Origin: an uncultured Dehalococcoidia bacterium | GTDB taxonomy: Bacteria; Chloroflexota; Dehalococcoidia; Lucifugimonadales; G958296245 | DNA length: 64,000 nt | Direction of reading: 5' to 3' | Assembly: GCA_958296245.1 (NCBI GenBank) | Contig: OY282458.1 | Span: 2,234,197 to 2,298,196, forward strand | Shown: positions 4,397-61,557 of the stretch, piece after piece | Layout of the letters: every line of letters starts with the position of its first letter | Numbering within the stretch: the stretch's first letter is position 1 | Notes under the pieces: generated by a model | Database searches by the model: none | The model's input: the letters and a program-made list of their open reading frames with translations, nothing else | What the model was told of the DNA's origin: nothing | Made by a program: the position numbers and the translations under genes

Positions 4397-5566
4397 TCAC
4401 GAGACCTCTCTCATGATGTTGTACATGTGCATGTAGAGCTTGAACGCCTCCCGGGCAAAGTCGAGCAGGCCCAGGCCCTCCGCTTCCCCCACGTGGAGTT
4501 GTATCTCCTTCTGGAACAGGGAGAACTCCGTGTGGTAAGTATCTCCACCTTGAGACAGGGCGTCGGCCATGCGCCGGGACTCCTCCGACGGCACCAGCGC
4601 GTCGGCCCTGTCGTGCATGATGAGGGCCCGCGCCAAGAGATTGTCGATGTTGGCGCTCGGCGACACTTTACGGAAGAGCTCTTTCGTCTGTGGGGAGAGC
4701 TGCTCTATCAGACGGTCCGCCTCCTCCAGGGTAGTAGTCCCCTTCAGAAGGCGGTAGGCTGCCATCCCCTCCTCCGTGAGCGCTTCGATCTCCCTCTCGT
4801 CGGCCTCCTCCCCGTCCCTGAAGACACGCACCAGCAGGTCCCTGTCTGCGGCCTCGCTGACGCCGGTTGTCAGATGGCGCCGGAAGACTTCGTACGTTAG
4901 CGGGTCCGGCTCCCACGGCGCCGAGTAGCCGTCGCCGAAGCGCGATCTGGTCCCTATGGCTTTAGCCAAGTCGGAGATGTCGTAATAGCCCGCCAGGAAG
5001 TTGACGAACTTGACTTGCTCCCTGATCCGGGCGTCCTGCGCGGCAACGGTGACAAATGACGCCCCTACGCATATACCCCCCATCCCCACGCGGTCCGGGT
5101 CGACGGAATCCAGCGACCTCAGATATTGGAAGCCGAGAACCAGGCTGTCTATGTCTTCCGGGACCAGCTCTCCGCGAACCTGCGTGTCCAGCCACGGGAT
5201 CATAACGACCATGCCGGACCGAGCCAGCGCCTCCGCCAAGGCAACTACCCGGGGGTCGAACCTCCCCCCCGGTACGACCCCCTGGAAGAAGAGTACCGCA
5301 CTGTATCGCGCGTCTCCCGGGGGGGAGTATACGTCAGCGACGGCTTGGCCGCTCTCCGTCTGGAATCGGACCTCCGACACCACGGGGTCGGGTATGAACC
5401 ACGGCTGCGCCTCGACGGGGATAGATGGGAGCACCTGGGGGATGAAGAGCACGGTCCGCGCGGCTGCCCTGCCCTGAGGCGTGAAGGCCAGCAGCAACAA
5501 GACCAAGGCTAGGGCTGCGCCCACCCCAATAAGTACACCGTCGAGTAACCGTTTGAACATTACCAA
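4397..5566 (-). CDS. membrane-anchored alpha/beta-hydrolase-fold-like protein
   Basis: N-terminal hydrophobic helix (VLIGVGAALALVLLLLAF) and a nucleophile-elbow-like GMGGICVGASF. No more precise family was recognised. Confidence 0.55.
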   Translation of the reverse strand: MVMFKRLLDGVLIGVGAALALVLLLLAFTPQGRAAARTVLFIPQVLPSIPVEAQPWFIPDPVVSEVRFQTESGQAVADVYSPPGDARYSAVLFFQGVVPGGRFDPRVVALAEALARSGMVVMIPWLDTQVRGELVPEDIDSLVLGFQYLRSLDSVDPDRVGMGGICVGASFVTVAAQDARIREQVKFVNFLAGYYDISDLAKAIGTRSRFGDGYSAPWEPDPLTYEVFRRHLTTGVSEAADRDLLVRVFRDGEEADEREIEALTEEGMAAYRLLKGTTTLEEADRLIEQLSPQTKELFRKVSPSANIDNLLARALIMHDRADALVPSEESRRMADALSQGGDTYHTEFSLFQKEIQLHVGEAEGLGLLDFAREAFKLYMHMYNIMREVS

Positions 5567-5618: not shown

Positions 5619-6344
5619 TTGGCCTCTCTGTGCACCCAAGGAGGGATGGCGGGCAGGGTCGGCGCCGTGGTCGTGGCCGCCGGGCGCAGTCGGCGTATGG
5701 GAGGCCCGGACAAGACGTTCTTGCCGTTGGCGGGGAGGCCCCTTGCCAGCCATTCGCTTGAAGCCCTGAATAGGTGTGCGCAGGTGGACGCCATAACATT
5801 CGTAGTGCCGGCCCACGCTGTGGAGCGAGGCAAGCGCCTCGTGGAAGAGAACCGCTGGGAAAAGGTCGCCGCAGTGTGCCCGGGAGGCGAACGCCGGCAG
5901 GATTCCGTGAGGCGCGGCCTAGCCGCGCTCCCGGACGTGGACTTGACCATGGTCCACGACGCGGCTAGGCCCTGCGCGGACCAGTCCATCTTCCAACGAG
6001 GCATCGGCGAGGGGATGAAGTACGGCGCCGCGGTGGCCGCCGTACCCGTCAAAGACACCATCAAAGCAGCCGACGGCGACGGCTTCGTGACCAAGACCCT
6101 AGACCGCCGACGGCTCTGGTCCGTGCAGACACCCCAGGTATTCAGAACGAGCCTTCTCAAAATGGCGCATCGCAAGGTCCACGCGGACGTTACGGACGAC
6201 GCGGCCATGGTGGAATGCCTGGGTCACAAGGTCCACGTATTCCAGGGCAGTGAGGAGAACATCAAGGTGACTACGCCCTCGGACGTCGCGGTCGCCGAAG
6301 TCCTGCTAGCTGCCAGAGCCACGGCCAGCGGGGCCGCGCCGTGA
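5619..6344 (+). CDS. ispD: 2-C-methyl-D-erythritol 4-phosphate cytidylyltransferase
   Basis: The signature VVVAAGRSRRMGGPDKTFLPLAGRPL and the overall length match IspD. The start may instead be the ATG at 5646. Confidence 0.9.
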   Translation: MASLCTQGGMAGRVGAVVVAAGRSRRMGGPDKTFLPLAGRPLASHSLEALNRCAQVDAITFVVPAHAVERGKRLVEENRWEKVAAVCPGGERRQDSVRRGLAALPDVDLTMVHDAARPCADQSIFQRGIGEGMKYGAAVAAVPVKDTIKAADGDGFVTKTLDRRRLWSVQTPQVFRTSLLKMAHRKVHADVTDDAAMVECLGHKVHVFQGSEENIKVTTPSDVAVAEVLLAARATASGAAP

Positions 6345-6871
6345 AGCCGCGTACGGGCATAGGATTCGACGCGCACCCGCTGGCCGAAGGCCGGCCCATG
6401 GTCGTCGGAGGCGTCGACGTCCCGTTCGACCGAGGGCCTCTTGGTCACAGCGATGGGGACGTCCTGATACATGCGGTCATCGACGCGCTGCTGGGCGCCG
6501 CGGGCCTCGGAGACATCGGGACCCACTTCCCGCCAGGCGACGAGAGTCTGAGGGGGGCCGCGAGCACCGATCTCCTCCGCGCCGCCGTGAGACTGCTGAA
6601 GGGGCGGGGATGGCAGATTACTTACGTCGACGCTACCGTCATCCTCGAACGTCCCGTCCTCAAGCCGTTCATCGGCCGTATCGCCCAGAGCATCGCCAAC
6701 TGCCTGGATCTGGACCGCGGCTTGGTGAACGTCAAGGCCACGACGACGGACGGACTGGGTTTCACGGGCAGAGGCGAAGGGGTGTCCGCTCTCGCCGCGG
6801 CGACCGTGGAGGCCGCCGAATGCGGTACACGCCCTGAGCGCGCAGCAGCCGCGCCCCTGCGGAGTTCGTGA
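6341..6871 (+). CDS. ispF: 2-C-methyl-D-erythritol 2,4-cyclodiphosphate synthase
   Basis: RTGIGFDAHPL...GHSDGDVLIHAVIDALLGAAGLGDIGTHFP. The GTG start overlaps the ispD stop. Confidence 0.92.
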   Translation: MKPRTGIGFDAHPLAEGRPMVVGGVDVPFDRGPLGHSDGDVLIHAVIDALLGAAGLGDIGTHFPPGDESLRGAASTDLLRAAVRLLKGRGWQITYVDATVILERPVLKPFIGRIAQSIANCLDLDRGLVNVKATTTDGLGFTGRGEGVSALAAATVEAAECGTRPERAAAAPLRSS

Positions 6872-8536: not shown

Positions 8537-8725
8537 GTAACTGTTCGGTCTCTGTGAGACCCGAATGGGGAAGTCCGGAGACGTCTCCCCTCCGGCAGGG
8601 GGTCTGGTATGCAGGCGAGACGCCTGCGCTCCCGGTTGCCAAGAGGGGCAGGCGGGGATCAAAAGACGTCTGCTCTATCAGGGCTGCGCCAGTCGAAAAG
8701 GACCTCACGAAGTCTGAACAGTTAC
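8537..8725 (+). repeat. MITE-like intergenic element, family A, full-length copy with both terminal inverted repeats
   Basis: Left end GTAACTGTTCGGTCTCTGTGAG. The reverse complement of the right end is GTAACTGTTCAGACTTCGTGAG. The interior is homologous to copies at 26305, 33853 and 39372. Confidence 0.8.
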
Positions 8726-9877: not shown

Positions 9878-11005
9878 ATGAGTAAGGGGCGTGTGATCGT
9901 TGCCATGAGCGGAGGCGTGGACTCCTCCGTGGCGGCCCTGCTGCTGAAGCGGCAGGGCTACGACGTCGTGGGAGTGACGATGCGCCTGTGGACCGTCGAG
10001 CGCGAAGGGCTGCCAGCCCAGAGCAAGCGGTGCTGCTCGGTGGAGGACGTCGACGACGCCCGGTCGGTCTGCCAGAAGATAGGCGTCCCGCACTACGTCA
10101 TGAACTTCGAGCGCGAGTTCGAGGAGCACGTGGTGGGCTACTTCTGCCGGGAGTACGACAGGGGCCGCACGCCGCACCCTTGCCTTGCCTGCAACGACAA
10201 GATCAAGTTCGACTTCCTGCTGCGGAGGGCCCTGTTCCTAGACGCCGACTACGTGGCGACGGGTCACTACGCCCGCATACGACGCGGCCCGGCGTCGTTC
10301 GAACTCCTCAAGGGGGTTGACCCCCGGAAGGACCAATCCTACGTCCTCTTCACACTGACGCAGCGTGAGTTGGGGCGGCTGCTCCTTCCGGTAGGCGAGC
10401 TCCCCAAGAACCGAGTACGCGAATTGGCCGCCGAAGCCCGCCTGCCCGTAGCCGATAAGCCTGACAGCCAGGAGATATGCTTCATCCCGGACGGCGACTA
10501 CCGCAAATTCGTCAGGGGCCGTGTCAGCCCAAGACCCGGGGACATCGTGGATATGCGCGGGGAGGTGATCGGGGTCCATCCGGGGGTGCAGTTCTTCACC
10601 GTGGGCCAGCGGCGCGGGCTCGGCCTTGGGGGGAATACCGGGGCTCCTCGGTACGTGGTGCGGATCGACCCTGCCCGCAACAGGGTGGTCCTGGGCGCTG
10701 AGGAGGATCTCTACAGGACGTCCACGTGGGCGTCCTCCATCAACTTCACGGAGGGCCGAGCGCCCGAAGGTCCCGTGGAGGTGACGGCCAAGATCAGGTA
10801 TAAGGCCAGCGAGGCTCCGGCCACCCTCACGCCTCATGCGGGCTTCGCCGAGCTTCACTTCCGCGAGCCGCAGCGCGCCGTGACCCCCGGACAGGCGGTG
10901 GTCTTCTACGACGGAGGCCGCCTGCTGGGCGGGGGGATCATCGAACTGGACCCTCCGACCGGCGCCGGAGCGCCGCCGGCGCTGGCCGGGGCCGCGGCGG
11001 GCTAG
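9878..11005 (+). CDS. mnmA: tRNA 2-thiouridine(34) synthase
   Basis: PP-loop VIVAMSGGVDSSVAA plus conserved CCS..D, ACND.IKF, ATGHYAR and DQSY motifs. The start is set at ATG 9878 rather than the track start at 9839. Confidence 0.93.
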   Translation: MSKGRVIVAMSGGVDSSVAALLLKRQGYDVVGVTMRLWTVEREGLPAQSKRCCSVEDVDDARSVCQKIGVPHYVMNFEREFEEHVVGYFCREYDRGRTPHPCLACNDKIKFDFLLRRALFLDADYVATGHYARIRRGPASFELLKGVDPRKDQSYVLFTLTQRELGRLLLPVGELPKNRVRELAAEARLPVADKPDSQEICFIPDGDYRKFVRGRVSPRPGDIVDMRGEVIGVHPGVQFFTVGQRRGLGLGGNTGAPRYVVRIDPARNRVVLGAEEDLYRTSTWASSINFTEGRAPEGPVEVTAKIRYKASEAPATLTPHAGFAELHFREPQRAVTPGQAVVFYDGGRLLGGGIIELDPPTGAGAPPALAGAAAG

Positions 11006-11011
11006 CCCGCC

Positions 11012-11662
11012 GTGGCGTCTCGCCCCAAAGCGCCCCGCCGGACTAGGCCGACTTACCGCGAGGAGCGGCGGCTCCTGAAGGACGGCATCGCGCCTGTGGC
11101 AGGCCTGGATGAGGTCGGCAGGGGATGCCTTGCAGGCCCGGTCGTCGCAGGGGCGGCTGTGCTCCCACGCAATCCAAGGGGGGCCTGGGTCTCAGAGATC
11201 CGAGACAGCAAGCAGATGACGGCGCGGCAGAGGGAGCGGATGATGGCCGAGCTTCAGGATCGGGCCCCGGCCCTGGCGACCGGGTTAGCCAGCGCGGCCG
11301 AGATCGACCGCATAGGCATCGTGCCTGCGACCAGGCTAGCCATGCGCCGCGCCGTCGAGGCGCTCGGCGTCGCGCCCGCGTTCCTCCTGATCGACGCCTT
11401 GGAGCTCCCCGACCTGACCCTGCAACAGAAGTCTATAGTACGCGGCGACTCCCTCTGCCTGTCCGTCGCCGCTGCGTCGATAGTCGCCAAAGTCGCCCGA
11501 GACAGGATGATGGAGTCGGAGGACGCCTCCTACCCCCCCTACGGCTTCGCCAGCAACAAGGGGTACGCCACCCGCCAGCACCTCCGGGCCCTCGAAGAGC
11601 GCGGCCCGTGCCCCATTCACCGGTACTCCTTCGCGCCCGTGCGCCAGCCTCAATTGCTGTGA
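11012..11662 (+). CDS. rnhB: ribonuclease HII
   Basis: GLDEVGRGCLAGPVVAGAAVL and DSKQMT motifs; GTG start. Confidence 0.9.
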   Translation: MASRPKAPRRTRPTYREERRLLKDGIAPVAGLDEVGRGCLAGPVVAGAAVLPRNPRGAWVSEIRDSKQMTARQRERMMAELQDRAPALATGLASAAEIDRIGIVPATRLAMRRAVEALGVAPAFLLIDALELPDLTLQQKSIVRGDSLCLSVAAASIVAKVARDRMMESEDASYPPYGFASNKGYATRQHLRALEERGPCPIHRYSFAPVRQPQLL

Positions 11663-12030
11663 CGAGCACCCCCCGCCAGCGCCTGGGTTCGTTGGGCGAG
11701 ACGCTGGCGCGCCAGCGTCTCGAGGTGTCCGGCTACAGGGTCCTAGAGACCAACTACCGCGCCAAGGCCGGTGAGATCGACCTGGTTGCCGAGCATGGCC
11801 CCACGCTGGTCTTCGTCGAGGTGCGGACTCGCTCGGCCCATACCCTGGGCAGCCCGGAGGAGTCCCTGACACCCCGGAAGCGCTCCCACATGGCCGACGC
11901 CGCCCAGGAGTACCTGCAGGCCAAGGGCGCCGAGTCCCGCGATTGGCGCATCGACCTGGCGGCCGTGGTACTCACGCATCAAGGCCGCCTCCTCCGCTTC
12001 GACGTAATACGGAACGCCGTAGAGACGTGA
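11659..12030 (+). CDS. yraN: YraN-family (UPF0102) endonuclease-like protein
   Basis: G..GE..A...L...GY.VL..NYR...GEIDLVA......VFVEVR pattern. The GTG at 11659 overlaps the rnhB stop. The 301-aa track ORF starting at 11125 is an out-of-frame upstream extension across rnhB. Confidence 0.85.
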   Translation: MTSTPRQRLGSLGETLARQRLEVSGYRVLETNYRAKAGEIDLVAEHGPTLVFVEVRTRSAHTLGSPEESLTPRKRSHMADAAQEYLQAKGAESRDWRIDLAAVVLTHQGRLLRFDVIRNAVET

Positions 12031-12088
12031 GCGGCCCCTGACCGGAGCGGGTACCCCCCAACACGTGGCGGCGGCGCAGTTGGCGCGT

Positions 12089-12120
12089 GAAACCGTTCAG
12101 ACTCCGTGAGACCCGAATGA
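12089..12120 (+). repeat. family A repeat, solo left-end fragment
   Basis: GAAACCGTTCAGACTCCGTGAGACCCGAATGA matches the left terminus of the 8537 copy (..GTGAGACCCGAATGG). Confidence 0.6.
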
Positions 12121-12199
12121 CGCCCCGGGCGCCCGCCATCGCGGGGTGGTAGACTTCATCCTCGGGATAGAGACTCAAACGGACTGGAGGTTACTCCAT

Positions 12200-13933
12200 A
12201 TGGGAACCGGCTCGCGGACCTCTAGGAGGCCGATTACGGCGAATCCGTCCCAAATCATGGTCGAACAGCTTGCTGCGTCCGGGGTGAAATACGTCTTCAA
12301 TAACCCCGGCTCGCGGGAGGCGCGCTTCATGGACGCGCTGCACTCCCACCCCAGCCTTCACGGCATCCTGGCCCTGCATGAAGGCAGCGTGGCGGCCATG
12401 GCTGGGGGATACGCGCAAGCGAAGCTGGAACCGGCGGTCATGGTCGTGCATCTCAGCGCCGGCCTCGCTCAAAGCCTCGGGCAGGTGATCAACCTCTATG
12501 AAGGCAGCCTGCCCGTCGTGATCATCACGTTTGCGGGCGATACCGGCAGCTACTACGACAGGATCGGGATGGAGCTCGACCACAGCTTCGGGCCCACGTC
12601 CATCTCGGCGCCGTTCACCAAGTCCGGTTGGACGGTCGTCGAGCCTGACGGGCTGGCGCAAGCCGTAGACCGCGCTCTTCGAGTCGCTGCGACGCCTCCG
12701 GCGGGGCCCGTGCATCTTGCGGTCTATGACCGGCTACTGGGGGCCGAGGAGGTCGAGACGACCATCATCGAGGGCGCCCGGCATAGCGTCCGGGCCGGCA
12801 GCCCAGACGACGGCGACATTGAGAGCCTGGAGCGCGCCCTGCGCGAGACGGAGCGGCTCCTGATCTACGTCGGCGATGGCGTGTGGAAGAGCGGCGCGCA
12901 GGAACACGTGGCCGCCCTCGCCGAGCACTACGGGGCCGCGGTCTGCGGGGACTTCAGAAGCCTGCCGATCAAGCATCCGCTCCACTGCGGGCCCGTGTAC
13001 GACGCGCTTGCCGAGCCGGTCTTCGACACGATCGTGTGCATCGGCGCCCGGCATATAGGCACGGGCTTCCCCGAACCGTACGCCCCCGCACGATTCGCAC
13101 CCCGAATCATCGCCATCGGTCCCGACGTCCGAAACCTCAAGAACATCCAGGACGTGGACCTGGCGATCCTGGCCGACGAACGGAAGACCCTCGAACAGCT
13201 CGCCCGTCTTACCGCCCTGCGCTGCGAGGGACCGTTCGCCGAGCGCAGGGCATGGGCCCGTGAACACGCTGCCGGGCTGAGGGAGAAGCGGCTGCGGACG
13301 GCCCGCGCCGTCGAGGCGCAGCCGTCCACGGTGAGGCCGTGGGCGCTCCTCGACACCCTGGACGAGGCCCTGGAGGAGCGGGGCGGCGCCGTGGTGATGA
13401 TGGAGCAGTTCGCCTTGCCCATAGCCAGCATGGCGGGCAAGGGGGAGTCCGGGAAGAACACCTACGTCTACGCGGCCGGCGGCTCCGAGGGCTACGGCGT
13501 AGGAGGCGCCATAGGTCTGAAGCTGGCCGCCCCGGAGCGCAGGGTCGTGGGACTCATCGGGGACGGCTCCCTGTACTACTCAGACTCCGGCCTGTGGACC
13601 GCGGCGAATCATGGGGTTCCGGTGCTCTTCGTGGTCCCCAACAACAAATCCTACGGCACCGTCGCCGGCGCGTTCGGCGGCGTGGACGGAAACATGACCC
13701 GTACCGGAGAGTACGCCGGCGTCGTGCTCGACGGCGTTGACCCGTCCAAGATCGCCGAGGGCTTCGGCGTGGAGTCCATGACCGTCAGCGACGAAGCGGC
13801 CGTCGGACGCGCGATCGAGGAGGGGCTCCGCGTGGTCGACGACGAGAAGCGGCCGTTCCTACTCGACGTGCGCCTTCCGCTAGGCCTGCCGAGGGGCGGA
13901 CGCCCCGCCGCTCGCTACCGGCTCCAAAGCTAA
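12200..13933 (+). CDS. thiamine-diphosphate-dependent enzyme (acetolactate synthase / benzoylformate decarboxylase-like)
   Basis: N-terminal Pyr domain (GVKYVFNNPGS, E in HEGSVAAMAGGY) and a C-terminal ThDP motif GDGS..Y.....L.TA....PV..VV.NN. The start is set at ATG 12200 after GGAGG. Confidence 0.85.
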   Translation: MGTGSRTSRRPITANPSQIMVEQLAASGVKYVFNNPGSREARFMDALHSHPSLHGILALHEGSVAAMAGGYAQAKLEPAVMVVHLSAGLAQSLGQVINLYEGSLPVVIITFAGDTGSYYDRIGMELDHSFGPTSISAPFTKSGWTVVEPDGLAQAVDRALRVAATPPAGPVHLAVYDRLLGAEEVETTIIEGARHSVRAGSPDDGDIESLERALRETERLLIYVGDGVWKSGAQEHVAALAEHYGAAVCGDFRSLPIKHPLHCGPVYDALAEPVFDTIVCIGARHIGTGFPEPYAPARFAPRIIAIGPDVRNLKNIQDVDLAILADERKTLEQLARLTALRCEGPFAERRAWAREHAAGLREKRLRTARAVEAQPSTVRPWALLDTLDEALEERGGAVVMMEQFALPIASMAGKGESGKNTYVYAAGGSEGYGVGGAIGLKLAAPERRVVGLIGDGSLYYSDSGLWTAANHGVPVLFVVPNNKSYGTVAGAFGGVDGNMTRTGEYAGVVLDGVDPSKIAEGFGVESMTVSDEAAVGRAIEEGLRVVDDEKRPFLLDVRLPLGLPRGGRPAARYRLQS

Positions 13934-14024
13934 CGTGTACGTCTTGGGATCTGTCCGATTTATTTCCGCAGCCTGCCGGCCCCCCCGCTGACCGGGGTCA
14001 CTCTCAGACTTCATGCGTTGAATC

Positions 14025-14936
14025 GTGAAGGCCTCCCCAACGACGCAGCATACACAATCGCAGCCACTGCCGAGGGCCGTCCTAGGACGGACCGGGCTGG
14101 AGGTGACCCGGCTGGGCTATGGGGCCGCGTTCCGCAAGCGAATCGGCGAGGAACACGCCGACCGCCTGCTGAATCAGGTCATCGGCTCCGGCGTGAACTT
14201 CGTGGACACGGCGGGCGACTACCTGGACAGCGAGGTACGGATCGGCCGCGCCCTTTCGCACAGGTACGGCGAGTTTCACCTGTCCACGAAGTGCGGCTGC
14301 ACGGAGCGGCGGGAGCCGCATCACGTCAACGGCTCGGTTCACGAGTGGACACGCCAGAATCTGTACCGGGGCGTCGAGCAGAGCTTGGAGCGTCTCAACC
14401 GTGGCAGCCTGGAGATGGTGCAGCTCCACAGCCCCACGGTCGAGGAGTGCGAGAGGGGTCAGCTCGTCGAGACGCTGGCGGACATGCGGAGCAGCGGGCT
14501 GATCAGGTGGATGGGCATCTCGACCGCCTTGCCCCATCTCCCGGTCTTCCTGGAATGGGGGGTGTTCGACTTCTTCCAAGCGCCATACTCGGCGGTGCAG
14601 CGGGAGCATGAGGACTTGATCACCAAGATAGCCGAGTCCGGCGCTGGGGTCGTCGTCAGGGGAGGGGTAACACCCGAGGACCCTGAGCGTTGGAGCGCGT
14701 TCGAGCGGGCGCGGCTGGCCGAGTTGATGGGAGAAGGAGAGAGCATTTCGACCTTCATGCTGCGCTTCGCCCTAGCGCACCCCTCCATACATACGGTGAT
14801 CGTAGGCACTACGAGCACCGACCACCTTCGGGAGAACGTCGAGGCCGCGCTCGAAGGTCCCCTGCCCGCCGGCGAATATGCGGAAGCGCTTCACAGGCTG
14901 GACGCCGTAGGCGAAACTCCCGCCGACGTGGAGTAA
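14025..14936 (+). CDS. aldo/keto reductase
   Basis: LGRTGLEVTRLGYGA, NFVDTAGDY and the overall AKR layout; GTG start. Confidence 0.85.
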   Translation: MKASPTTQHTQSQPLPRAVLGRTGLEVTRLGYGAAFRKRIGEEHADRLLNQVIGSGVNFVDTAGDYLDSEVRIGRALSHRYGEFHLSTKCGCTERREPHHVNGSVHEWTRQNLYRGVEQSLERLNRGSLEMVQLHSPTVEECERGQLVETLADMRSSGLIRWMGISTALPHLPVFLEWGVFDFFQAPYSAVQREHEDLITKIAESGAGVVVRGGVTPEDPERWSAFERARLAELMGEGESISTFMLRFALAHPSIHTVIVGTTSTDHLRENVEAALEGPLPAGEYAEALHRLDAVGETPADVE

Positions 14937-14978
14937 CATAAGCGCGTCGAGAGCACAAGTTACTGAAGGAGGCCGTAA

Positions 14979-15392
14979 ATGGACTTCAGCACCGAGTTGG
15001 GAGGGCGTATCCGCAAGCAGCTTGAATCCGAGCACACGATCTGGCTAACCACCGTGGGCAGCGACAACACGCCGCAGCCCAGGCCGGTGTGGTTCGTGTG
15101 GGACGGCGAAACGCTCCTGGTGTACAGCGAGCCAAACACGCACAAGCTCCGGCACGTCGAGCGCAGCCCCAAGGTGTCTGTCAACTTCAACACTGACTTC
15201 GATGGGGAGCACGTCGGCGTCCTGACGGGAGAAGCCCGGGTCGACCCGGACGCGCCGCCGCCGGACGAGAACTCGGACTATCTCGCAAAGTACGGACGCG
15301 GAATAGCCGCCCTCGGCATGACGCCGGCGGAGGTCGCCCGCGATTACAACGTGGCCCTGCGGATAACCCCGCGGAAGATGCGCGGCTTCTAA
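14979..15392 (+). CDS. pyridoxamine 5'-phosphate oxidase-family (possibly F420-dependent) protein
   Basis: A small split-barrel protein: IWLTTVGSDNTPQPRPVWFVWDGETLLVYS. Confidence 0.7.
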   Translation: MDFSTELGGRIRKQLESEHTIWLTTVGSDNTPQPRPVWFVWDGETLLVYSEPNTHKLRHVERSPKVSVNFNTDFDGEHVGVLTGEARVDPDAPPPDENSDYLAKYGRGIAALGMTPAEVARDYNVALRITPRKMRGF

Positions 15393-15423
15393 CCCCGGAG
15401 CCGCACGGCAGAGGAGACAGCCC

Positions 15424-16185
15424 ATGAACGACCACGAGCGCTACCTATTCGACCTCAAGGGCTACGTTGCGGTGCCCGGGGCGCTGAGCGGGGAACAGGT
15501 GGCCAGGCTCAACAGCGTGCTGGACGAGCGTATCGACGCGGAGTGTCCGCCGGACATGCGCACCCACAGGTTCGTGCCGCTGCTCGACTGGGGCAGGGAC
15601 TACCGGGACCTCATAGACAACCCGGCGGCGACGCCTTACGTGGCCGAGCTTCTGGGCGAGCGGTTCCGGCTGGACCACGTCTACCTCGACGTCATCAGGT
15701 CGGGCAAGGGCCCCATAGGCACGCGGCTGCACGGGGGCGCGACCCCGTTCAACCCCACCCACTACTTCCGCTTCGAGGGAGGGCGGATGCATAACGGCCT
15801 GTCGGTGGTCGCCTACAACCTGAAGGACGTGGGGGCCGACGACGGCGGTTTCGGGTGCGTGCCCGGCTCTCACAAGAGCAACTACCCCTTCCCGGAGGAG
15901 TGGAAGGAGATGGACGAGCCGGGGCCCATCGTCGAGCGCGTCACGGGTCCCGCCGGCACAGCCATCATATTCACCGAGGCGCTCACCCACGGCACCCTGC
16001 CATGGACGGGCGCGGACGAGCGGCGGACCATATTCTTCAAGTACAGTCCCCACCCCATCTCGTGGTCGGCCCACTACTTCGACCCCGACGACTACGACGG
16101 CCTCACGGAATCGCAGCGCAGCATCTTGGAGGGGCCGAACGCCCGCTACGCCTATAGGGACCAACCCAAGGGCACCGTGACGTAG
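15424..16185 (+). CDS. phytanoyl-CoA dioxygenase (PhyH) family Fe(II)/2-oxoglutarate oxygenase
   Basis: FDLKGYVAVPGAL N-terminus, with LHGG and CVPGSH...FTEALTHG His/Asp-type ligand contexts. Confidence 0.75.
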   Translation: MNDHERYLFDLKGYVAVPGALSGEQVARLNSVLDERIDAECPPDMRTHRFVPLLDWGRDYRDLIDNPAATPYVAELLGERFRLDHVYLDVIRSGKGPIGTRLHGGATPFNPTHYFRFEGGRMHNGLSVVAYNLKDVGADDGGFGCVPGSHKSNYPFPEEWKEMDEPGPIVERVTGPAGTAIIFTEALTHGTLPWTGADERRTIFFKYSPHPISWSAHYFDPDDYDGLTESQRSILEGPNARYAYRDQPKGTVT

Positions 16186-26443: not shown

Positions 26444-27547
26444 CTACGCGCCGGATGGTTGGTAGAGAGCCGTTGCCGGGTTCCAGTCGTTCCACGCGAA
26501 CCAGAAGCTGAGGTGCGACGCGACCCTCTCCAGAGCGGCGCCCTTCAGCGGGCCGTCGATGGCGAGGCCCGTCAGCGCCATCCAAGTTGAGCCGGTGTTC
26601 TCGTCCATCAGCAGAGGCCGCGCACCGCCGCCCGGGAGCAGTCTGAAGGTCAGGGCGACGCCGTTTACGCCCCGATCGTACACCAAGGCCGTCTCCGTGT
26701 TGGTCTCCAGGAACACCAGAACGTCATGGCCGCCCACCGAGTCGTTGACGACGGGCTCGGACCGTAGCGGGGCCAAGGGATAGGCCTTCGTGTCCCCGTC
26801 CAGGCTGACCCCGACTACGAGGTCCTTCGGCGCCAGTCTGTCGTCCTCGTTGCTCTCCCCCAGCACACCCTTTTCCGCGTCCCGATAGTAGAACCGATAG
26901 GAGTCGCCCCGGTAGCCGCCTTTCTTGTCCAGAACCAGCGTGTCCGGGTGGGTGTCCATCCAGAGCGCCCACGAGGTCTGGGTCACAGGGATTAGGTCGA
27001 GTTTGACGCCTCGCATCGGGCCTTTGACGGCCTGCCCGAGGAACTGGCTCCAGAGGCTGCGCGTCTGGTGGTCGTACATGACGAGGACGTTCATGATCAG
27101 TTTGCCAGAGACGCCGAAGGTGTGCATGGCCCCTTCGATTCTTCGGGCATACACGATGCCCGAAAAGCACAGCGGTCACCACGTAACGGCGACGGGCGTC
27201 CCGCCGACGAAGTCGTTGACTATCTCGTGCCGGCTGAGCATCGAGATGGGGTAGGCATGGCGCTCGCCGCCGATTGACAGGCCCAACACCTGCTCGGAGG
27301 GGTCCATCCAGACCCGCGCCTCGCCGGCGGTGACAAACTCAGGCTCCAAGATGGCCTGGATGCCGTCGAATGGTATCAGCGTGACCATCTCGACGGTGCG
27401 CCCCGGGATGCCCTGGGCATCGTCGGGCAATACAGCTTCCTCGACGTCCATGACGCCCTTGCCGAGTCGTATGAGGAAGGGCAGCAGCAGGACGGCGACG
27501 GCAGCGACCGCAGCTAGGGCGAACATCATCTTCGCGTAAGTTCGCAT
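26444..27547 (-). CDS. DUF3179-family protein interrupted by one in-frame TGA (27176..27178): candidate selenoprotein (UPLC for CPLC) or a pseudogene
   Basis: Track ORFs 27176..27547 and 26444..27154 are in the same frame. Read through, the junction is ..GGTPVAVTW-[TGA]-PLCFSGIVYARRIEG..FGVSGKL, which aligns to the family's ..VT(Y/W)CPLC.. core. There is an N-terminal signal/anchor helix. Confidence 0.6.
27140..27166 (-). promoter_or_regulatory. SECIS-like mRNA hairpin 3' of the in-frame UGA
   Basis: The mRNA reads UGA-CCGCUGUGCUU-[UUCGGGCAU]-CGUGU-[AUGCCCGAA]. The stem is a perfect 9 bp, extendable by U-G and U-A pairs, with a 5-nt loop containing G and U, and it starts 11 nt after the UGA. 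Confidence 0.45.
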
Positions 27548-29935: not shown

Positions 29936-29980
29936 TTAGATTCCTCACTCCGCCGGCGCTGCGTTCGGAATGACATGGGG
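29936..29980 (+). repeat. family B repeat unit
   Basis: TTAGATTCCTCACTCCGCCGGCGCTGCGTTCGGAATGACATGGGG, compared with the 24087 unit. Confidence 0.6.
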
Positions 29981-29981
29981 G

Positions 29982-30015
29982 GTCGAAAAGGACCTCACGA
30001 AGTCTGAACAGTTAC
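29982..30015 (+). repeat. family A repeat, solo right terminus
   Basis: GTCGAAAAGGACCTCACGAAGTCTGAACAGTTAC is identical in pattern to 8692..8725. Confidence 0.75.
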
Positions 30016-39339: not shown

Positions 39340-39526
39340 CAGGGTGTAACCTGTCCCAGACTCGTCAGGGTGTAACTGTTCAGACTCTGTGAGACGAAGG
39401 TGGTCCTCCCCCTCTGGCCGGGGGCCTGGGGGCCGCGCCCTCAGTTACCAAGGGGCGGGTAGGGATCAAAGGCGTATGCTTTATCAGGGTTACGTCGAAA
39501 GGGACCTCACGAAGTCTGAACAGTTA
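39340..39526 (+). repeat. family A MITE-like element, full copy (39372..39526) preceded by a duplicated terminus (39340..39371)
   Basis: CAGGGTGTAACCTGTCCCAGACTCGT and CAGGGTGTAACTGTTCAGACTCTGT are tandem left ends. The right end is GTCGAAAGGGACCTCACGAAGTCTGAACAGTTAG. Confidence 0.8.
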
Positions 39527-39590
39527 GTGTTGGGTGACAGATTTCACAAGATTCTGTAGAATCGGGGTTACTTCACTGGAGGCTCACCGA

Positions 39591-49014: not shown

Positions 49015-49091
49015 GGGCCAGTAGCTCAGCCGGTTAGAGCGCAGTCCTGATAAGACTGAGGTCCGTGGTTCGAGTCCACGCTGGCCCACCA
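49015..49091 (+). tRNA. tRNA-Ile (anticodon GAU) with an encoded CCA
   Basis: Hand-folded cloverleaf: acceptor GGGCCAG/CTGGCCC, D arm GCTC..GAGC, anticodon stem CAGTC/GACTG with loop CTGATAA, T arm CGTGG-TTCGAGT-CCACG, and 3' ACCA. Confidence 0.9.
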
Positions 49092-50668
49092 TTCTTGACG
49101 GTAGACAGTACCGGGCCGTGCAGAGCGATCTCCTCGACGTCCCTTCCGGGTATGGGGCTGTCGTCGGGCATGGGGATGGAGTAGTGGACGACGGCGTTGC
49201 CGGGGCTGACGACGACCTCCTTGACGAAGCTCTCAATGAAGGCTCTCGACTCGGTGAGCTCGCTGGTCTTGAGGAAGTCGCTCATGTCCTCTGCGTAGGC
49301 GGTGATGGTCTCCACGTCGTCCAGGACCACCCTGCGCTCCGAGAGGACGACCTTCGCCTCCTCGGCTGTGGCCTCCAGCCGCTCCCGGCGCTCCCTGTGA
49401 TCACGGATGCGAGGGGTTACGTCGGCCATGTCGAGGTCGGTGGTCTCAACCAGGTTGTACAGTCGGTCCAGCCTGCGCCGCACCTCCGCAAGCTCCGACT
49501 CGGCGGTCTGAAGCCTCTGGCGCTGCTCGTGGGCCACGCCGTCCATCTCCTCGTCCACCAGCCGCACCAGACCGCGGATGTTGCCCTCGGTCAGGATGTT
49601 GGAGCGAATCTGGCCGACGACCAACTCCTCGAAGCGCTTGGCGTTGAGCCTGGGGGCGTCGCAGGCCCCGCTGCCCCGCTTCATCAGCGACTGGCAGACG
49701 TAGTAGGAGAACCGGCCGCTCTTGGAGTCCTGGCCGGAGAGCGCCCGGTCGCACGTCCTGCACCTGACCAGTCCGCTGAGCAGGTAGGAGCTTCCGACCC
49801 TGCGGGGGTGAATCCTCCTGGGGGCGCGGGAGCGCAGTTTCCGGTTCACCCGGCGGAACTGGGATTTGGAGACGATGGCGGGGAACGCCCTCTCCACCCG
49901 CACCGGCTCGGCCTTGTCCTTGGCCTGGGCTCCCCAGATCAGCGTGCCCGTGTAGACCTCGTTCTTGAGGATGAAGTGGACGGTGTTCTTGGACCAGAGC
50001 TTGCCTGCGGGGCTGGCGAGACCTTCGTCGTTGAGGGTCTCAGCGATGGGCAGCATCCCCTTTCCGGCCTGCGCCATGTCGAAGATGCGCTCGACTACGG
50101 GCGACGTGTCCGGGTCGAGTTCCAGCGTGGGGCGTTTCTTGGGCCCGTCCTGCACCATGACCCTGTTGTATCCGTAGGGCGTCCTGCTGCCGATCCAGTA
50201 GCCCCGAGAGGCGGCCTCCCGCATCCCCCTCAGAACCTCCTGGGCGAGATTCTCGCTGTAGAACTCGTCCACGCTCTCGATGATTCCCTCAAGCAGCTTG
50301 CCGGTGGGGGTGTCGTCGGCCTGCTCGGTGATGGAGACGACTCGAACGCCCTTGCGCCGGAGCAAGGATTTGAAGGCGACGGCGTGCTCGCGCTTGCGTG
50401 TGAAGCGGGAGAACTTCCAGACCAGAATCTCCCTGAACGGAGCGTTGGTCTTGGTGGCCGCGTCGATCATCTTGCGGAACTCCGGCCTGTCGGCGATGCG
50501 CCCGCTCTCGGCCTCGTCCACGTACTCGCGGGCGACGAGGTACCCGTTCTTGCGTGCATAGTCCCTGAGCGCCCGCATCTGGGCGGCAACGGAAAGGTCC
50601 ACGTCCTGCCGGTCGCTGGATACTCTGGCATAGAGGGCCGCGGGCGTGTAGTCGGTCAGCTGGTTCAT
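49034..50668 (-). CDS. large serine recombinase (resolvase/invertase catalytic domain, recombinase domain and zinc-ribbon/coiled-coil)
   Basis: N-terminus AALYARVSSDRQ (catalytic Ser), ..DEAESG....RPEF..M, Cys cluster CRTCDRAL...YYVCQ...GSGAC, and a long helical region. ATG 50668 lies 8 nt after AAGGAGG. The last codons run antisense through the tRNA. Confidence 0.9.
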   Translation of the reverse strand: MNQLTDYTPAALYARVSSDRQDVDLSVAAQMRALRDYARKNGYLVAREYVDEAESGRIADRPEFRKMIDAATKTNAPFREILVWKFSRFTRKREHAVAFKSLLRRKGVRVVSITEQADDTPTGKLLEGIIESVDEFYSENLAQEVLRGMREAASRGYWIGSRTPYGYNRVMVQDGPKKRPTLELDPDTSPVVERIFDMAQAGKGMLPIAETLNDEGLASPAGKLWSKNTVHFILKNEVYTGTLIWGAQAKDKAEPVRVERAFPAIVSKSQFRRVNRKLRSRAPRRIHPRRVGSSYLLSGLVRCRTCDRALSGQDSKSGRFSYYVCQSLMKRGSGACDAPRLNAKRFEELVVGQIRSNILTEGNIRGLVRLVDEEMDGVAHEQRQRLQTAESELAEVRRRLDRLYNLVETTDLDMADVTPRIRDHRERRERLEATAEEAKVVLSERRVVLDDVETITAYAEDMSDFLKTSELTESRAFIESFVKEVVVSPGNAVVHYSIPMPDDSPIPGRDVEEIALHGPVLSTVKNGGPAWTRTTDLSLIRTAL

Positions 50669-50685
50669 CGGTGTGTCCTCCTTGC

Positions 50686-50883
50686 TCACTCCTGATCGTT
50701 CCGGCGGGCCTCGGCCCGTTGGCGGCGCTCTTGCCGCAGCCACGCCCGCTCCTGCATGTACAGGCGGATGGCCTCGCGGAGGAACTCGCTCATGTTGCGG
50801 CCTTCCTCCTTCAGCACCTGCTGCACCTGCTCGGCCATTTCCGGCGGCATGGAAAAGGTAATGGCCTTTCGGGTCGTGGGCAT
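50686..50883 (-). CDS. ribbon-helix-helix (CopG/Arc-like) DNA-binding protein
   Basis: KAITFSMPPEMAEQVQQVLKEEGRNMSEFLREAIRLYM is a beta-strand plus two helices. ATG 50883 follows GAGGAGG. It lies 17 nt upstream of the recombinase gene. Confidence 0.75.
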   Translation of the reverse strand: MPTTRKAITFSMPPEMAEQVQQVLKEEGRNMSEFLREAIRLYMQERAWLRQERRQRAEARRNDQE

Positions 50884-50904
50884 TCTCTCTTTTTGCCTCC
50901 TCAA

Positions 50905-50921
50905 GTATGACACAGTCATAC
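50905..50921. promoter_or_regulatory. perfect 17-bp palindrome (candidate operator) in the RHH/recombinase leader
   Basis: GTATGAC-ACA-GTCATAC, located between the RHH start codon and a TTGACA hexamer (minus strand, 50955..50950). Confidence 0.4.
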
Positions 50922-51129
50922 CCTTATCATGAACGTTCCTAGCCGCCGTTGTCAAGGGCCGGGCCTCTGTGAGTGGCAATCATATTCGGGTAGAATGGGT
51001 CCATAAACGTTCTGAGGAATGATTGACGGGGAGAGCGTCAACAACATCGTAAACTTCTCTCCCAGCCATTGTTGCAAATAGGACATTCGGTCGGGGTCAC
51101 CTCAAGATCCATAAGTGGGACATCATCCA

Positions 51130-52995
51130 ATGACGCAGAATCAGCGCGAAACACGAACCGTCCAACTTGAGAGTTGGGAAGTAGGTGGCGAGCTACTAGA
51201 TATTCTGTCCCGCGGCCTGTATTCAGATGCTAAAGACGCGCTCAGGGAGTACGTGCAGAATGGCGTCGATGCTGGAGCCAAACACATCTTGATTACGGTG
51301 GACGGAGCTCAGGTAGTTATCAGAGACGACGGAACCGGGATGGATGACGAGGGGATGCGAGCAGCTCGCAGATTCGGAATGTCTAACAAGAGTCCCCAGG
51401 ACATGGTGGGTTATCGTGGCATCGGAATATATTCTGCATTTGGTATATGCGAAGAGATGTCGATCACAAGCCACCAAGAAGGGATGCCAAACTTGGTAGG
51501 CTGGAGATTCCAGTTTGGTGAAATGCGCCGTTTGCTTGAAGCAGACAAGGCCTCTGACACTCGCCAAGGAATCGGACTGCCAGACCTCATGTATCAGTAC
51601 ACCGAATTATTCACTGAACCCTACCGAGGTAATGTTGACGATCACTTCACCGTCGTCGAGATTGACGGCATAGGTGAAGAATATAGAGCCCAACTAAACA
51701 ATGCCGCAGAAGTCAACGATTATCTTCTGAACACGATCCCCGTAGCCTTCTCAACAGAGGAAGGCTACGGTCGAACTGTCAACGATTGGTTAGCAGAACA
51801 TGTAGGACTGAATCCAGTTCGAATCTCCCTTCAGGTCGCCGATGAGAGTGAGTTTGATATCGAGCCATTAGTTGCTCAAGGCGTTTATGATGCCGAATCC
51901 GACTGGATAAAGGCGCCAGATGGCACCGCATTGGCCTTCGTTTGGTACACACTCTCCACTACTGGCAGGCAACTTGCCGTCCAGAACGGTTTATCTATGA
52001 GTGGATTTCTTTTGAAAGTGAAGGGCTTCACTTTGGGAGACCGCCTAGCGTTGAAAGGACTGTGGCCAGCTGTCGGTGGAGGAACATTGTACCACCACTA
52101 CACGGGAGAAGTTCACATTCTAGCGACTGACCAGTTGTACCCCAATGCAGCCCGGAATGACTTGGAATCGAACCCTGCTAGGCAGCTTTTCATAAAACAG
52201 GCGGAAGACTTCTTCTACCCGCTCAGCCGAAAAGCGCGGGTAATGCAGGCGAAGACAAGGGCAGCGCGACTGCTCGAAGGCATAGATGTCGCGATAGACC
52301 GTCTGAATGAACAGAAGAATGCACCAAACGTGAATGCGTACGAAATATACCGAAATAGCGAGAACTATCGAAAAGAACTAGAGAATGTGTTTCAGGAGAT
52401 TGAACGGCATTTGCGAAAGCCCCGTGGCAGGCCTCGCGTGCAACTCGACCAAGTCCAGCAAGACGCGTTGGATGAGGTCATCAAAAGGTTGCGTGGGTCC
52501 ATTAGTGAACTAGGGGGACTGGCAAGAGATGCGCAGCGGCGAACCCAGAAGCCCAAGCGGGAAGCGACGCAGCCTCCTCCGCAAGTAGGTTTCCTAAACA
52601 ATGCCCTCAGTGCTACGTTGCAGATGGCGGAGAAGACATCTGATCCTCGCTTTGCCGAGGCAGCGACGTTATTGAAGCCACTGGTCAATACCAGGTCAGT
52701 TCCACGGGCGATAGGAATTCTTGACGAGCTGAAGGCGTCGGGCATGGAACTAGGTGTTGAGGTAGAGTCCGCAAGAAGGGAGTTGCGGGCTTCAATAGGA
52801 TGGTCTCCTCTTGCACCTGTCTCGCTAGAGGAGGCTCTAGCTCAACGAGGAGTTTCCCTGGAAGGAGAGCGTGAGGAGCGCCTAGTCAGAGCTATTGACC
52901 GCGGCTTGGTAGTAGGTCTAGGTGGAAGAGGAGAGGCGTTTGAGACTGTGCTGCGAGCCGTTGCCGAAGGAGTCGCCGAGGAAATGGGGAACTAG
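51130..52995 (+). CDS. GHKL-superfamily ATPase (HATPase_c_3 / MORC-MutL-Hsp90-like), paralog 1
   Basis: Bergerat-fold motifs in order: N box ALREYVQNGVDA, G1 IRDDGTGMD, G2 GYRGIGIYSAFG. The C-terminal 400 aa or so are helical and uncharacterised. The start may be GTG 51115. Confidence 0.8.
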   Translation: MTQNQRETRTVQLESWEVGGELLDILSRGLYSDAKDALREYVQNGVDAGAKHILITVDGAQVVIRDDGTGMDDEGMRAARRFGMSNKSPQDMVGYRGIGIYSAFGICEEMSITSHQEGMPNLVGWRFQFGEMRRLLEADKASDTRQGIGLPDLMYQYTELFTEPYRGNVDDHFTVVEIDGIGEEYRAQLNNAAEVNDYLLNTIPVAFSTEEGYGRTVNDWLAEHVGLNPVRISLQVADESEFDIEPLVAQGVYDAESDWIKAPDGTALAFVWYTLSTTGRQLAVQNGLSMSGFLLKVKGFTLGDRLALKGLWPAVGGGTLYHHYTGEVHILATDQLYPNAARNDLESNPARQLFIKQAEDFFYPLSRKARVMQAKTRAARLLEGIDVAIDRLNEQKNAPNVNAYEIYRNSENYRKELENVFQEIERHLRKPRGRPRVQLDQVQQDALDEVIKRLRGSISELGGLARDAQRRTQKPKREATQPPPQVGFLNNALSATLQMAEKTSDPRFAEAATLLKPLVNTRSVPRAIGILDELKASGMELGVEVESARRELRASIGWSPLAPVSLEEALAQRGVSLEGEREERLVRAIDRGLVVGLGGRGEAFETVLRAVAEGVAEEMGN

Positions 52996-53004
52996 TGGAA
53001 GGCA

Positions 53005-54003
53005 ATGGCAGGAAGATATGGTCATGGGATGACGCTTTACTACTCGAGTGACGACAAGGATCTTGTGAGGGATAAGTTTGATCTGCCTTTAGTCGAGGCA
53101 GTTGCTCGAAGGAAAGAAGGGAAGTTACGATATTTTGGGTTGCCCGGCGAGGATGCTCTGGACTTGCAGAGCTGGGGTAGCCTTTGCGACTACGTAGCAG
53201 CCGTGGAATTCTCCCGGGAGAGATTCCAGACGGTCAAGCATGTACTAAGAACACAATTTGGTAGCATAAGACATAGAGCTCACCTTGGCGATGTAGACAA
53301 GGTGATTCTGAGAAACAGGAGTGGTATACCACCCACGGAGTTCGTTTCAACTACCAACCGTCCGGGAGCTGGGTACATTTGGGATTTTGATGTTATCTAC
53401 TTGGACTATTTTGGGAAATTTCTGCCATATGAACGCGGTGGCGCTGAAGTTCGGAACAGAGCAAATGCTCTCAGAAGGCTGTTTGCACCCGACCGCCAGG
53501 ATGGATGGCAGCCGTGGCTTCTAATGCTCACAGTCGAGTCACGGCTATTCGGGCCTAATGATAGAGAACAGATGCGGCAGTTTCTTTCTGCGTCAAAGGA
53601 AGAGTCAGACGACGAGACTCAAAAGGCTATTGACTTCCTTCTAGACGAAACAGTCAGTACAAGGGAGCAGGCAGCGAGGCTTGTTCATGGCACGTTGAGC
53701 TACATCCTTGCTGTGGCAGCGTCCAATTCGGACGTACGGGTTTACCCCAAGCCCACCATGCTGTATCGCGGGGCCAACAACACCCCTATGCTTCACTTTG
53801 CATATGAGGTGACGCCAGCCGGATTGTTGTCAGGGTCTCAGCCAGTGTTACCCTTACTGAGGTCACCACTACTCCGAGTAAGGGATGACCATGCTGAGCC
53901 CTGGTTTGAGTTACTATCTTCACAACCGCCCGGTCAGACTAATTCAAGCCTGAGAGCGACATTGGACTTCCTGGATGAAGGACAGATCGAGCAAATCGTA
54001 TAG
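53005..54003 (+). CDS. hypothetical protein, partner of GHKL paralog 1
   Basis: It begins 9 nt after the GHKL stop, behind GGAAGG. No family was recognised. The short motifs RYFGLPGEDALD ... AAVEF ... LGDVD ... FDVIYLDYFG occur in the order of Rossmann methyltransferase motifs I-IV, which is only a weak resemblance. Confidence 0.6.
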   Translation: MAGRYGHGMTLYYSSDDKDLVRDKFDLPLVEAVARRKEGKLRYFGLPGEDALDLQSWGSLCDYVAAVEFSRERFQTVKHVLRTQFGSIRHRAHLGDVDKVILRNRSGIPPTEFVSTTNRPGAGYIWDFDVIYLDYFGKFLPYERGGAEVRNRANALRRLFAPDRQDGWQPWLLMLTVESRLFGPNDREQMRQFLSASKEESDDETQKAIDFLLDETVSTREQAARLVHGTLSYILAVAASNSDVRVYPKPTMLYRGANNTPMLHFAYEVTPAGLLSGSQPVLPLLRSPLLRVRDDHAEPWFELLSSQPPGQTNSSLRATLDFLDEGQIEQIV

Positions 54004-54032
54004 TGCCCTTTGGCAAGCACTGTCAGCGCGAA

Positions 54033-55055: not shown

Positions 55056-55060
55056 CTGGT

Positions 55061-56530: not shown

Positions 56531-56973
56531 TCAGTCGACCCCCCTGATGTGGTTGTAGCACCCCGCCAGTTCATTTCTGACAGTACGACGGTTTCAACTT
56601 CAGTCAATTCCTCTCTAATGCGAAAGTGAGTGAGTAATGACCGGGCGAGTCGCTCAATGGGCCATGGCACCGCCAGGACGAAGGCCGAGCCCTCTGCCAT
56701 TCCGCATCTTCTTAGGAAGGCTGTCACTTGAGCCTCCGTGTGCGAGTTCTCCAGGTCCCCCATGCTCTTGGCTTCCCCAATGACCACTCGTCCCTGTTCG
56801 CCGAGCATGGTATAGGCGTCAGGGACGTACCCGTCAATGGGAGGTGGCCGATTCAGAGACCGACGGCCTACGGAGTCGGTGAGAACACGTTCTCCCCGTC
56901 CCTCACAGAATCTATCGGAGATATAGCTGTGAAGTATGGCAACCAAGTTCGAGTGTTCTTGTGATTCAGGCAT
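56518..56973 (-). CDS. PD-(D/E)xK-fold nuclease-like protein
   Basis: GYVPDAY followed 13 residues later by VIGEAKS, which is the PD...ExK arrangement. It is small (151 aa) and overlaps both neighbours (8 nt and 13 nt). Confidence 0.65.
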   Translation of the reverse strand: MPESQEHSNLVAILHSYISDRFCEGRGERVLTDSVGRRSLNRPPPIDGYVPDAYTMLGEQGRVVIGEAKSMGDLENSHTEAQVTAFLRRCGMAEGSAFVLAVPWPIERLARSLLTHFRIREELTEVETVVLSEMNWRGATTTSGGSTDCRS

Positions 56974-57994: not shown

Positions 57995-58034
57995 ACTGTT
58001 GCCTCCCTAGCAAATCTTTAGCCGAACAGTGCGC

Positions 58035-61255: not shown

Positions 61256-61318
61256 CAGCAGCCCCCCAGCCTGGCCATTGTAAAGGTCAAGTCAGTTGTA
61301 CGACGTTGTTCTAGCACG

Positions 61319-61537
61319 CTATGCACCCTTACTGAGAGAGATGCTTGGTGTCAAGGTACTCTCTCGGGCTGTTACCGGCTTGACTTGCGCGTCAGGGGCA
61401 CTCTCGTCGAGATGGTCCCGGATTAGCCGAGCTATCAATGTGCTCTTCTTGAAGCCCCTTTCTTGGCAGTAGGCGTCGAATCTGTCGAACTCCTCAGAGT
61501 CCAGAAGAACGCTGATTTTCACACGCTTGCGGTTCAT
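61319..61537 (-). CDS. ribbon-helix-helix (CopG-like) protein, first gene of the operon
   Basis: KRVKISVLLDSEEFDRFDAYCQERGFKKSTLIARLIRDHL. ATG 61537 is preferred over the track start at 61579. Confidence 0.7.
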   Translation of the reverse strand: MNRKRVKISVLLDSEEFDRFDAYCQERGFKKSTLIARLIRDHLDESAPDAQVKPVTARESTLTPSISLSKGA

Positions 61538-61557
61538 ATCTGCACCTTTCGTTGTTA

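Follow-up and report, generated by a model that had tools for sequence, protein, structure and literature searches.

A DUF3179 gene from an uncultured Dehalococcoidia bacterium with an in-frame UGA, predicted to encode selenocysteine, and a conserved downstream hairpin

Does an in-frame TGA in the middle of a DUF3179 gene end one protein, mark a dead gene or encode selenocysteine (Sec)? The question is raised by a 64,000-nucleotide stretch of DNA from an uncultured Dehalococcoidia bacterium (assembly GCA_958296245.1, contig OY282458.1, positions 2,234,197 to 2,298,196 of the forward strand), which we call the window and whose own numbering we use throughout. On its minus strand, two open reading frames (ORFs), 27547..27179 and 27175..26444, make up one frame of 368 codons whose sole internal stop is TGA 27178..27176. 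We conclude that 27547..26444 is very likely a single functional gene that encodes a DUF3179 selenoprotein of 367 residues, and that its UGA codon 124 is almost certainly read as Sec, aided by a conserved RNA hairpin. The gene is a new member of an already known selenoprotein family.

One reading frame through the TGA codon

An earlier sequence-only reading of this DNA had proposed that the two ORFs share a frame and are split only by the TGA, and translation of the minus strand from 27547 to 26444 bears this out. Around the TGA, marked here by an asterisk, the frame reads ...GGTPVAVTW*PLCFSGIVYARR..., with FGVSGKL downstream, and the gene contains no further frameshifts or stops. If Cys is put in place of the internal stop, Pfam DUF3179 (PF11376) matches the 367-aa product with E=1e-86 and a score of 291.4 bits, against a gathering threshold of 27. 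Because this match covers the entire profile (positions 2-292 of 292), the DUF3179 domain is continuous through the TGA. The AlphaFold2 model of a Cys homologue, P0007, is likewise continuous across the Sec/Cys site, with a pLDDT (predicted local distance difference test) of 91.9.

Searching 5.8 billion proteins yielded 693 relatives. The closest of these (60-85 % identity) are nearly all fragments of ~234 aa that start at a GTG just past ...PLCFSGI, so gene callers have cut them short at this TGA too. In full-length relatives (~50 % identity), the Sec position is taken by Cys (TYCPLC or TWCPLC), which places the TGA at the first Cys of the CPLC motif, as the sequence-only reading had it. The second Cys of the motif is invariant across all homologues, and the first position is always Cys or Sec.

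The same codon was then read at the DNA level in 80 species-representative genome loci (Dehalococcoidia, SAR202, Anaerolineae, Promineifilaceae, Tepidiformaceae and three Poribacteria). The tblastn matches to orthologues continue in a single frame from one side of the TGA to the other. Among them, 78 Chloroflexota copies have TGA at exactly VTW[*]PLC and the three Poribacteria loci also have TGA, with TGT or TGC in only three loci. A metagenome scan seeded with a Cys-type protein profile still gave 70 TGA versus 4 TGC. Combined over genomes and metagenomes, TGA stands at this codon in 149 orthologue copies and TGC or TGT in 7, a count of the best-matching loci retrieved, almost all of them from Chloroflexota. 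The segment P-L-C-F-S/T-G is in frame and conserved in all 149 TGA copies. Among these loci the family is almost entirely of the Sec type, which implies that selection for selenium here is strong.

Two close relatives of the window gene bear on whether it is intact. Against an 80 %-identical orthologue (locus L164), which keeps both the TGA and the hairpin, the synonymous rate dS is ~0.6 in both halves of the gene, and the ratio of nonsynonymous to synonymous rates (dN/dS) amounts to 0.26-0.35 before the TGA and 0.13 after it. By these rates, both gene halves are under purifying selection. In an independent ENA assembly (L081), the gene is 99.5 % identical and differs at three synonymous and two non-synonymous sites; its TGA and hairpin are unchanged.

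Some copies of the family carry additional features. Tandem DUF3179 paralogues occur in four loci (L021, L024, L058 and L066, with second copies at ~4468-4550), and both copies have the TGA and the hairpin. In one metagenome copy (L104, 1219 onwards), a second in-frame TGA lies six codons past the hairpin loop (..IVYA*EIEG..); it may be a sequencing error or the sign of a decaying copy.

The hairpin downstream of the UGA

The sequence-only reading had also described a perfect 9-bp stem, 11 nt past the UGA, that closes a CGUGU loop and can gain two extra pairs, and coordinates and folding agree with this description. The stem, UUCGGGCAU/AUGCCCGAA, pairs 27164-27156 with 27150-27142 and is lengthened to 11 bp (27166-27140) by a U-A and a U-G pair, so that the whole hairpin spans nt 13-39 counted from the U of the UGA. 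Its free energy is -14.6 kcal/mol, its apical loop lies 20 nt past the UGA, and G occupies the second loop position. The published model of the bacterial selenocysteine insertion sequence (bSECIS; PMC13188914, Fig. 2) asks for a loop of 3-9 nt with G in its first two positions, an upper stem of 4-16 bp, a UGA-to-loop distance of 16-37 nt and a minimum free energy of <= -7.5 kcal/mol. Hairpin 27166..27140 lies within all four published criteria.

How often would such a stem arise by chance? Perfect stems of at least 9 bp with 3-9-nt loops number six distinct cases in the whole 64-kb window, and the chance expectation of one within the 22-nt allowed SECIS spacing range after any one codon is ~0.003. 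Judged by folding energy, the 66-nt fold is moderately unusual (z = -2.28; 8/200 shuffles fold equally well). Because the fold alone is only moderately unusual, the real support for the hairpin is comparative.

This comparison was made on an ungapped alignment (A2) of 79 TGA-form sequences, in which the core stem pairs columns 17-23 with columns 29-35. Loop positions G25 and U28 are invariant in this alignment, and compensatory double changes are found at five core pairs. Pair 20:32 changes from GC to CG in 15 sequences. Pair 21:31 changes from CG to AU in 12 sequences and to UA in 8 and is nowhere unpaired, and pair 18:34 changes from GC to UA in 5; pairs 19:33 and 22:30 have a few compensatory changes each. 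The covariation score is 0.249, versus 0.116 for column shuffles (0/500 reach the observed value) and versus <=0.093 when the 3' partners are slid by 1-3 columns. The sequence-only reading had named this comparison, together with the bSECIS model and an alignment of TGA against Cys orthologues, as ways to check the hairpin; it passes the model and covaries, and across the 149 TGA and 7 TGC or TGT copies it is confined to the TGA forms.

The same pairs affect the protein. Column 21 is a third codon position and is synonymous inside its Gly or Ala codon family. Column 31, 10 nt downstream, opens the Ala/Ser/Gly codon of Y-x-R, where changes alter the amino acid. Because columns 21 and 31 are perfectly correlated, the amino acids covary as well, in the combinations SG..YA, SA..YG, SA..YS, TG..YS and SS..YA. 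Judged from the aligned sequences, this covariation goes beyond what protein constraint alone would explain, and it makes the locus family an unusually clean case of RNA-structure-driven amino-acid covariation within a coding region.

The hairpin is widespread among the Sec forms, 122/149 of which form all seven core pairs and 139/149 of which pass the published bSECIS criteria; the 7 Cys forms make 2-5 of the 7 pairs. A sub-clade with the motif VTF*PLC[FY]TGLVFDR has a shifted register, with a CCGGUC/GACCGG stem and an 8-nt loop. The Poribacteria copies have the hairpin in the same register as the window gene.

Compared with the E. coli fdhF-type SECIS and the bSECISearch model, the hairpin in the window is alike in being a coding-region stem-loop right after the UGA, with a 5-nt loop, a G among the first two loop positions and a U after it, and 20-nt spacing. 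It differs from the fdhF-type element in primary sequence and has no conserved bulged U in the upper stem. Its lower-stem extension (27166-27163 / 27143-27140) is particular to this sequence and poorly conserved in orthologues.

Cys-type DUF3179 proteins such as P0008, P0016 and P0019, at ~50 % identity, share with the window protein its length, membrane anchor and two-repeat architecture, as well as the motifs HEIVND, CPLC, FGVSGKL, LVMYDxQ and FWFAW. They differ in having TGC or TGT in place of TGA, without a conserved hairpin. At the Y-x-R position, whose codon forms the 3' stem arm, Cys-type proteins usually have Asp, whereas Sec forms have Ala, Ser or Gly.

Selenocysteine insertion and the alternatives

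Following the steps of the established bacterial Sec pathway, we propose that the ribosome would not take UGA codon 124 as a stop. Hairpin 27166..27140 would instead serve as a bacterial SECIS element that recruits the SelB-GTP-Sec-tRNA(Sec) complex, which would place Sec at codon 124. In the product, a membrane anchor at the N-terminus would precede two homologous domains rich in beta structure, the first of which would contain Sec124 and Cys127.

Several observations weigh against this proposal. No tRNA-Sec was found in the 64-kb window with ARAGORN or Rfam, which detected tRNA-Ile only, and selA, selB and selD were not found there either, by Pfam on ~40 long ORFs or by tblastn with E. coli SelA, SelB and SelD. 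Standard tools do miss tRNA-Sec of the 8/4 type. Two scans of the window for a second selenoprotein gene with an in-frame TGA gave only antisense or junk frames. Within the hairpin, loop CGUGU satisfies the G[G|U] rule, but the closing N1-N2 positions (C, U) are unpaired, unlike in the commonest described pattern. Over 80 loci, the gene neighbourhood is poorly conserved, with no strongly conserved partner, and our literature search found no experimental selenium incorporation for any DUF3179 protein. As for the biochemical role, the best PDB matches that Foldseek gives for the P0007 model are Rieske/NirD-like domains (such as 3c0d, 2qpz and 3gce; probability 0.97-1.0), which are weak at target-normalised TM (template modelling) scores of 0.54-0.57 over ~100 residues and E values of 0.017-0.07.

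Because the window holds no Sec machinery, we infer the Sec competence of the source organism from its relatives, and actual insertion of Sec there is likewise predicted. For Chloroflexi, both Sec decoding and tRNA-Sec have been described (PMC1794560, PMC5389517). In the orthologue locus L020, from a related Chloroflexota genome, a selD gene (5740-6771, minus strand) lies 1.8 kb from the Sec-form DUF3179 gene; its product is 43 % identical to E. coli SelD and has AIRS and AIRS_C domains. An in-frame TGA interrupts the active-site motif of this selD as well (SCAG*ASKF), so the gene is of the Sec type. A selD gene is also present in L023 (6171-6941, minus strand), from a second related Chloroflexota genome, and the distances between selD and the DUF3179 gene in the two loci are 1.8-2.3 kb; the ORFs between them are without Pfam matches.

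A different genetic code was considered as well. TGA ends ~20/49 called genes in the window and, because it terminates ~40 % of them, codes 4 and 25 are ruled out.

The covariation and the orthologue counts reveal a conserved recoding signal, not the identity of the amino acid inserted, and this leaves room for UGA124 to be recoded as something other than Sec, either as Cys through a tRNA-Sec-like tRNA and a SelB-type factor or by hairpin-stimulated near-cognate read-through. SelB-dependent Cys recoding systems do occur in some bacteria, and the Sec machinery was not seen in the window. However, the hairpin fits the SelB-type bSECIS model, a Sec-type selD adjoins the orthologue in L020, and DUF3179 already counts among the selenoprotein families. 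In over 140 lineages, moreover, TGA and hairpin would have been kept for Cys without obvious benefit, when TGC would suffice. We therefore regard non-Sec recoding as very unlikely. A pseudogene is highly improbable. Its origin would be simple, as a nonsense mutation of a Cys codon (TGC or TGT to TGA) is a single-base change, and a recent loss of Sec decoding could also have left a dead gene in a genome whose Sec machinery is not visible in the window. But 149 orthologue copies, spread over different classes and phyla, have the identical TGA, no extra frameshifts or stops have accumulated, dN/dS against L164 is 0.13 in the part after the TGA and 0.26-0.35 in the part before it (dS ~0.6), and the hairpin is perfectly preserved.

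Public gene calls divide the locus in another way, into a 123-aa N-terminal protein and a 236-aa protein that starts from an in-frame GTG (27154) 21 nt past the TGA; the hairpin would then be a translational-coupling or attenuation signal. This arrangement would leave the strictly conserved P-L-C-F-S/T-G in neither product, whereas the Cys-type homologues are single polypeptides and the Pfam domain and the AlphaFold2 model are unbroken across the site. The putative restart GTG, furthermore, sits within the hairpin loop, and we give the two-gene explanation hardly any credence. Finally, an error of sequencing or assembly would have to involve one base only, the third of a codon that is truly TGC or TGT. 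The TGA is also found in the 99.5 %-identical ENA assembly, in the 80 %-identical orthologue and in 149 orthologue copies, and the hairpin that accompanies it is specific to TGA forms, which makes such an error extremely unlikely. The claim of the sequence-only reading that this is a Sec-containing DUF3179 protein with a SECIS hairpin, and not a pseudogene, thus stands on the 149 TGA copies, the covariation, the purifying selection and the independent assembly L081.

The protein, its surroundings and its family

The features of the gene and its predicted product are collected in Table 1.

Table 1. Features of the DUF3179 locus, in window coordinates
Feature	Position	Strand	Details
Complete DUF3179 gene, predicted selenoprotein	26444..27547	-	367 codons plus TAG stop; predicted Sec at codon 124
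In-frame UGA, predicted Sec codon U124	27176..27178	-	aligns with first Cys of CPLC in Cys-type homologues
U-P-L-C motif, residues 124-127	27167..27178	-	putative selenol/thiol redox or metal-binding site; role suggested by UxxC pattern
Bacterial SECIS-like hairpin, 11-bp stem	27140..27166	-	7-bp core 27162-27156 / 27150-27144; loop CGUGU 27155-27151
N-terminal hydrophobic segment, residues ~7-27	27467..27529	-	Kyte-Doolittle 19-residue mean up to 2.78; R2/K6 before segment
Internal repeat 1, residues ~81-203, with UPLC	26939..27307	-	BLASTP of N- versus C-terminal domain
Internal repeat 2, residues ~238-359, ETNT in place of UPLC	26471..26836	-	BLASTP self-comparison

The hydrophobic segment is predicted to be a single membrane anchor or signal anchor, and the model of P0007 has an N-terminal helix. 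By this topology, the bulk of the protein is probably outside the cytoplasm. The remainder contains an internal duplication, as repeat 1 and repeat 2 are 33 % identical over 123 residues (BLASTP, E=2e-19). Following the UxxC pattern, Sec124 and Cys127 probably form a selenol/thiol redox or metal-binding centre, and we hypothesize that the chemistry of the site is redox, or metal or selenium binding.

The Rieske-like similarity of the model can be taken as a lead on the fold, and not as evidence of membership. The Rieske ligand set CxH...CxxH is not present in the window protein, the separate domains have no Pfam Rieske match even at E <= 10, and profile and sequence searches of the PDB gave no informative match. 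With neither the ligand motif nor a significant sequence or profile match, we rejected membership in the Rieske [2Fe-2S] domain family.

Upstream of the DUF3179 gene, in the window and in a minority of loci, are genes for a RimI-like GNAT (12/80 loci) and for an ECF (extracytoplasmic function) sigma factor and a DUF5667 protein (4/80 loci). On the other side, an intergenic repeat of ~105 nt starts ~35 nt past the DUF3179 stop with a GC-rich hairpin (GGGGGCUGUGCCCCC). This copy (26409-26305, minus strand) is one of four in the window, the others being at 8621-8725 (+), 39423-39527 (+) and, partially, 29975-30015 (+), where zero are expected by chance. The repeat terminates in GAyCTCACGAAGTCTGAACAGTTAC, and each copy is upstream of and co-oriented with the next gene. 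The repeat may act as a promoter or leader element, or may be a small mobile repeat.

The same intergenic region is where the related loci depart from the window. The ENA contig that carries L081 (ERZ19489000 contig_3) is 99.1 % identical to and collinear with window 37133-26429, but departs from it 15 nt past the DUF3179 stop (L081 10699 onwards), with gyrB there and not the epimerase and MR_MLE genes. L164 keeps the gene order of the window, with a 4.9-kb insertion (10712-15630) at the same junction that includes an Eco57I-like gene. Because L081 diverges and L164 has its insertion there, the junction beside the repeat, at window 26429, is a rearrangement hotspot or an assembly break.

Elsewhere in the window, a large serine recombinase gene (49034-50743, minus strand) overlaps with its 3' end a tRNA-Ile (49015-49091, plus strand), past which the GC content drops from ~0.65 to 0.53-0.58 (window 49015-64000). 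The genes of this low-GC region include two for HATPase_c_3 proteins, one for an SNF2-family helicase and several ORFs without a Pfam match, and the region probably represents a mobile element integrated at the tRNA gene, or a defence island there. Window 1-48000 contains several MR/MLE enolase-superfamily genes, a family III CoA-transferase, a sarcosine-oxidase-alpha-like fusion, and short-chain and GFO/IDH/MocA dehydrogenases. This content fits a SAR202-like member of the Dehalococcoidia, in agreement with the taxonomy of the closest orthologue loci.

The sequence-only reading implied that DUF3179 was new as a selenoprotein family, a claim that fails because reviews of 2022 (PMC9312934) and 2026 (PMC13188914) already tabulate a "DUF3179 domain-containing protein, UxxC/T" among prokaryotic selenoprotein families. 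Both credit the entry to Zhang & Gladyshev 2007 (PMC1976440), a paper in which the name DUF3179 does not occur and in which the family would be one of those labelled 'OS_HP'. Beyond a single representative accession, the two reviews contain no analysis of lineage, SECIS structure or Sec:Cys ratio; our literature search found no paper that analyses the family further, and a search for SAR202 with selenocysteine returned nothing relevant. The window gene belongs to the same Pfam family as the tabulated proteins, with Sec first in UxxC (U-P-L-C) and a hairpin directly past the UGA, and there is no difference in kind between it and them. A scan of NCBIfam found no model for the family, which is consistent with the persistence of split gene calls.

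Taken together, these observations establish neither a new selenoprotein family nor a new recoding mechanism. What they add is the dominance of the Sec form among the best-matching loci, almost all from Chloroflexota, the coupling of SECIS covariation to amino acids, and the systematic splitting of the gene in annotation. The right annotation for the locus is one selenoprotein gene and not two hypothetical ORFs, and hundreds of Chloroflexota and Poribacteria genomes and metagenome contigs need correcting in the same way.

A more specific role can be sketched, although we consider it unlikely. In marine Chloroflexota, the Sec form of DUF3179 may be dedicated to handling selenium or metals outside the cytoplasm, with a duplicated Rieske-derived fold in which a former cluster-binding loop holds a selenol/thiol centre (U-P-L-C), and with a functional tie to selenium metabolism. 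Two hints point in this direction: selD is adjacent in one sub-clade, and Sec has replaced Cys almost completely. If this role were true, the family would be among the most widespread uncharacterised selenoproteins of the ocean, systematically hidden by split gene calls.

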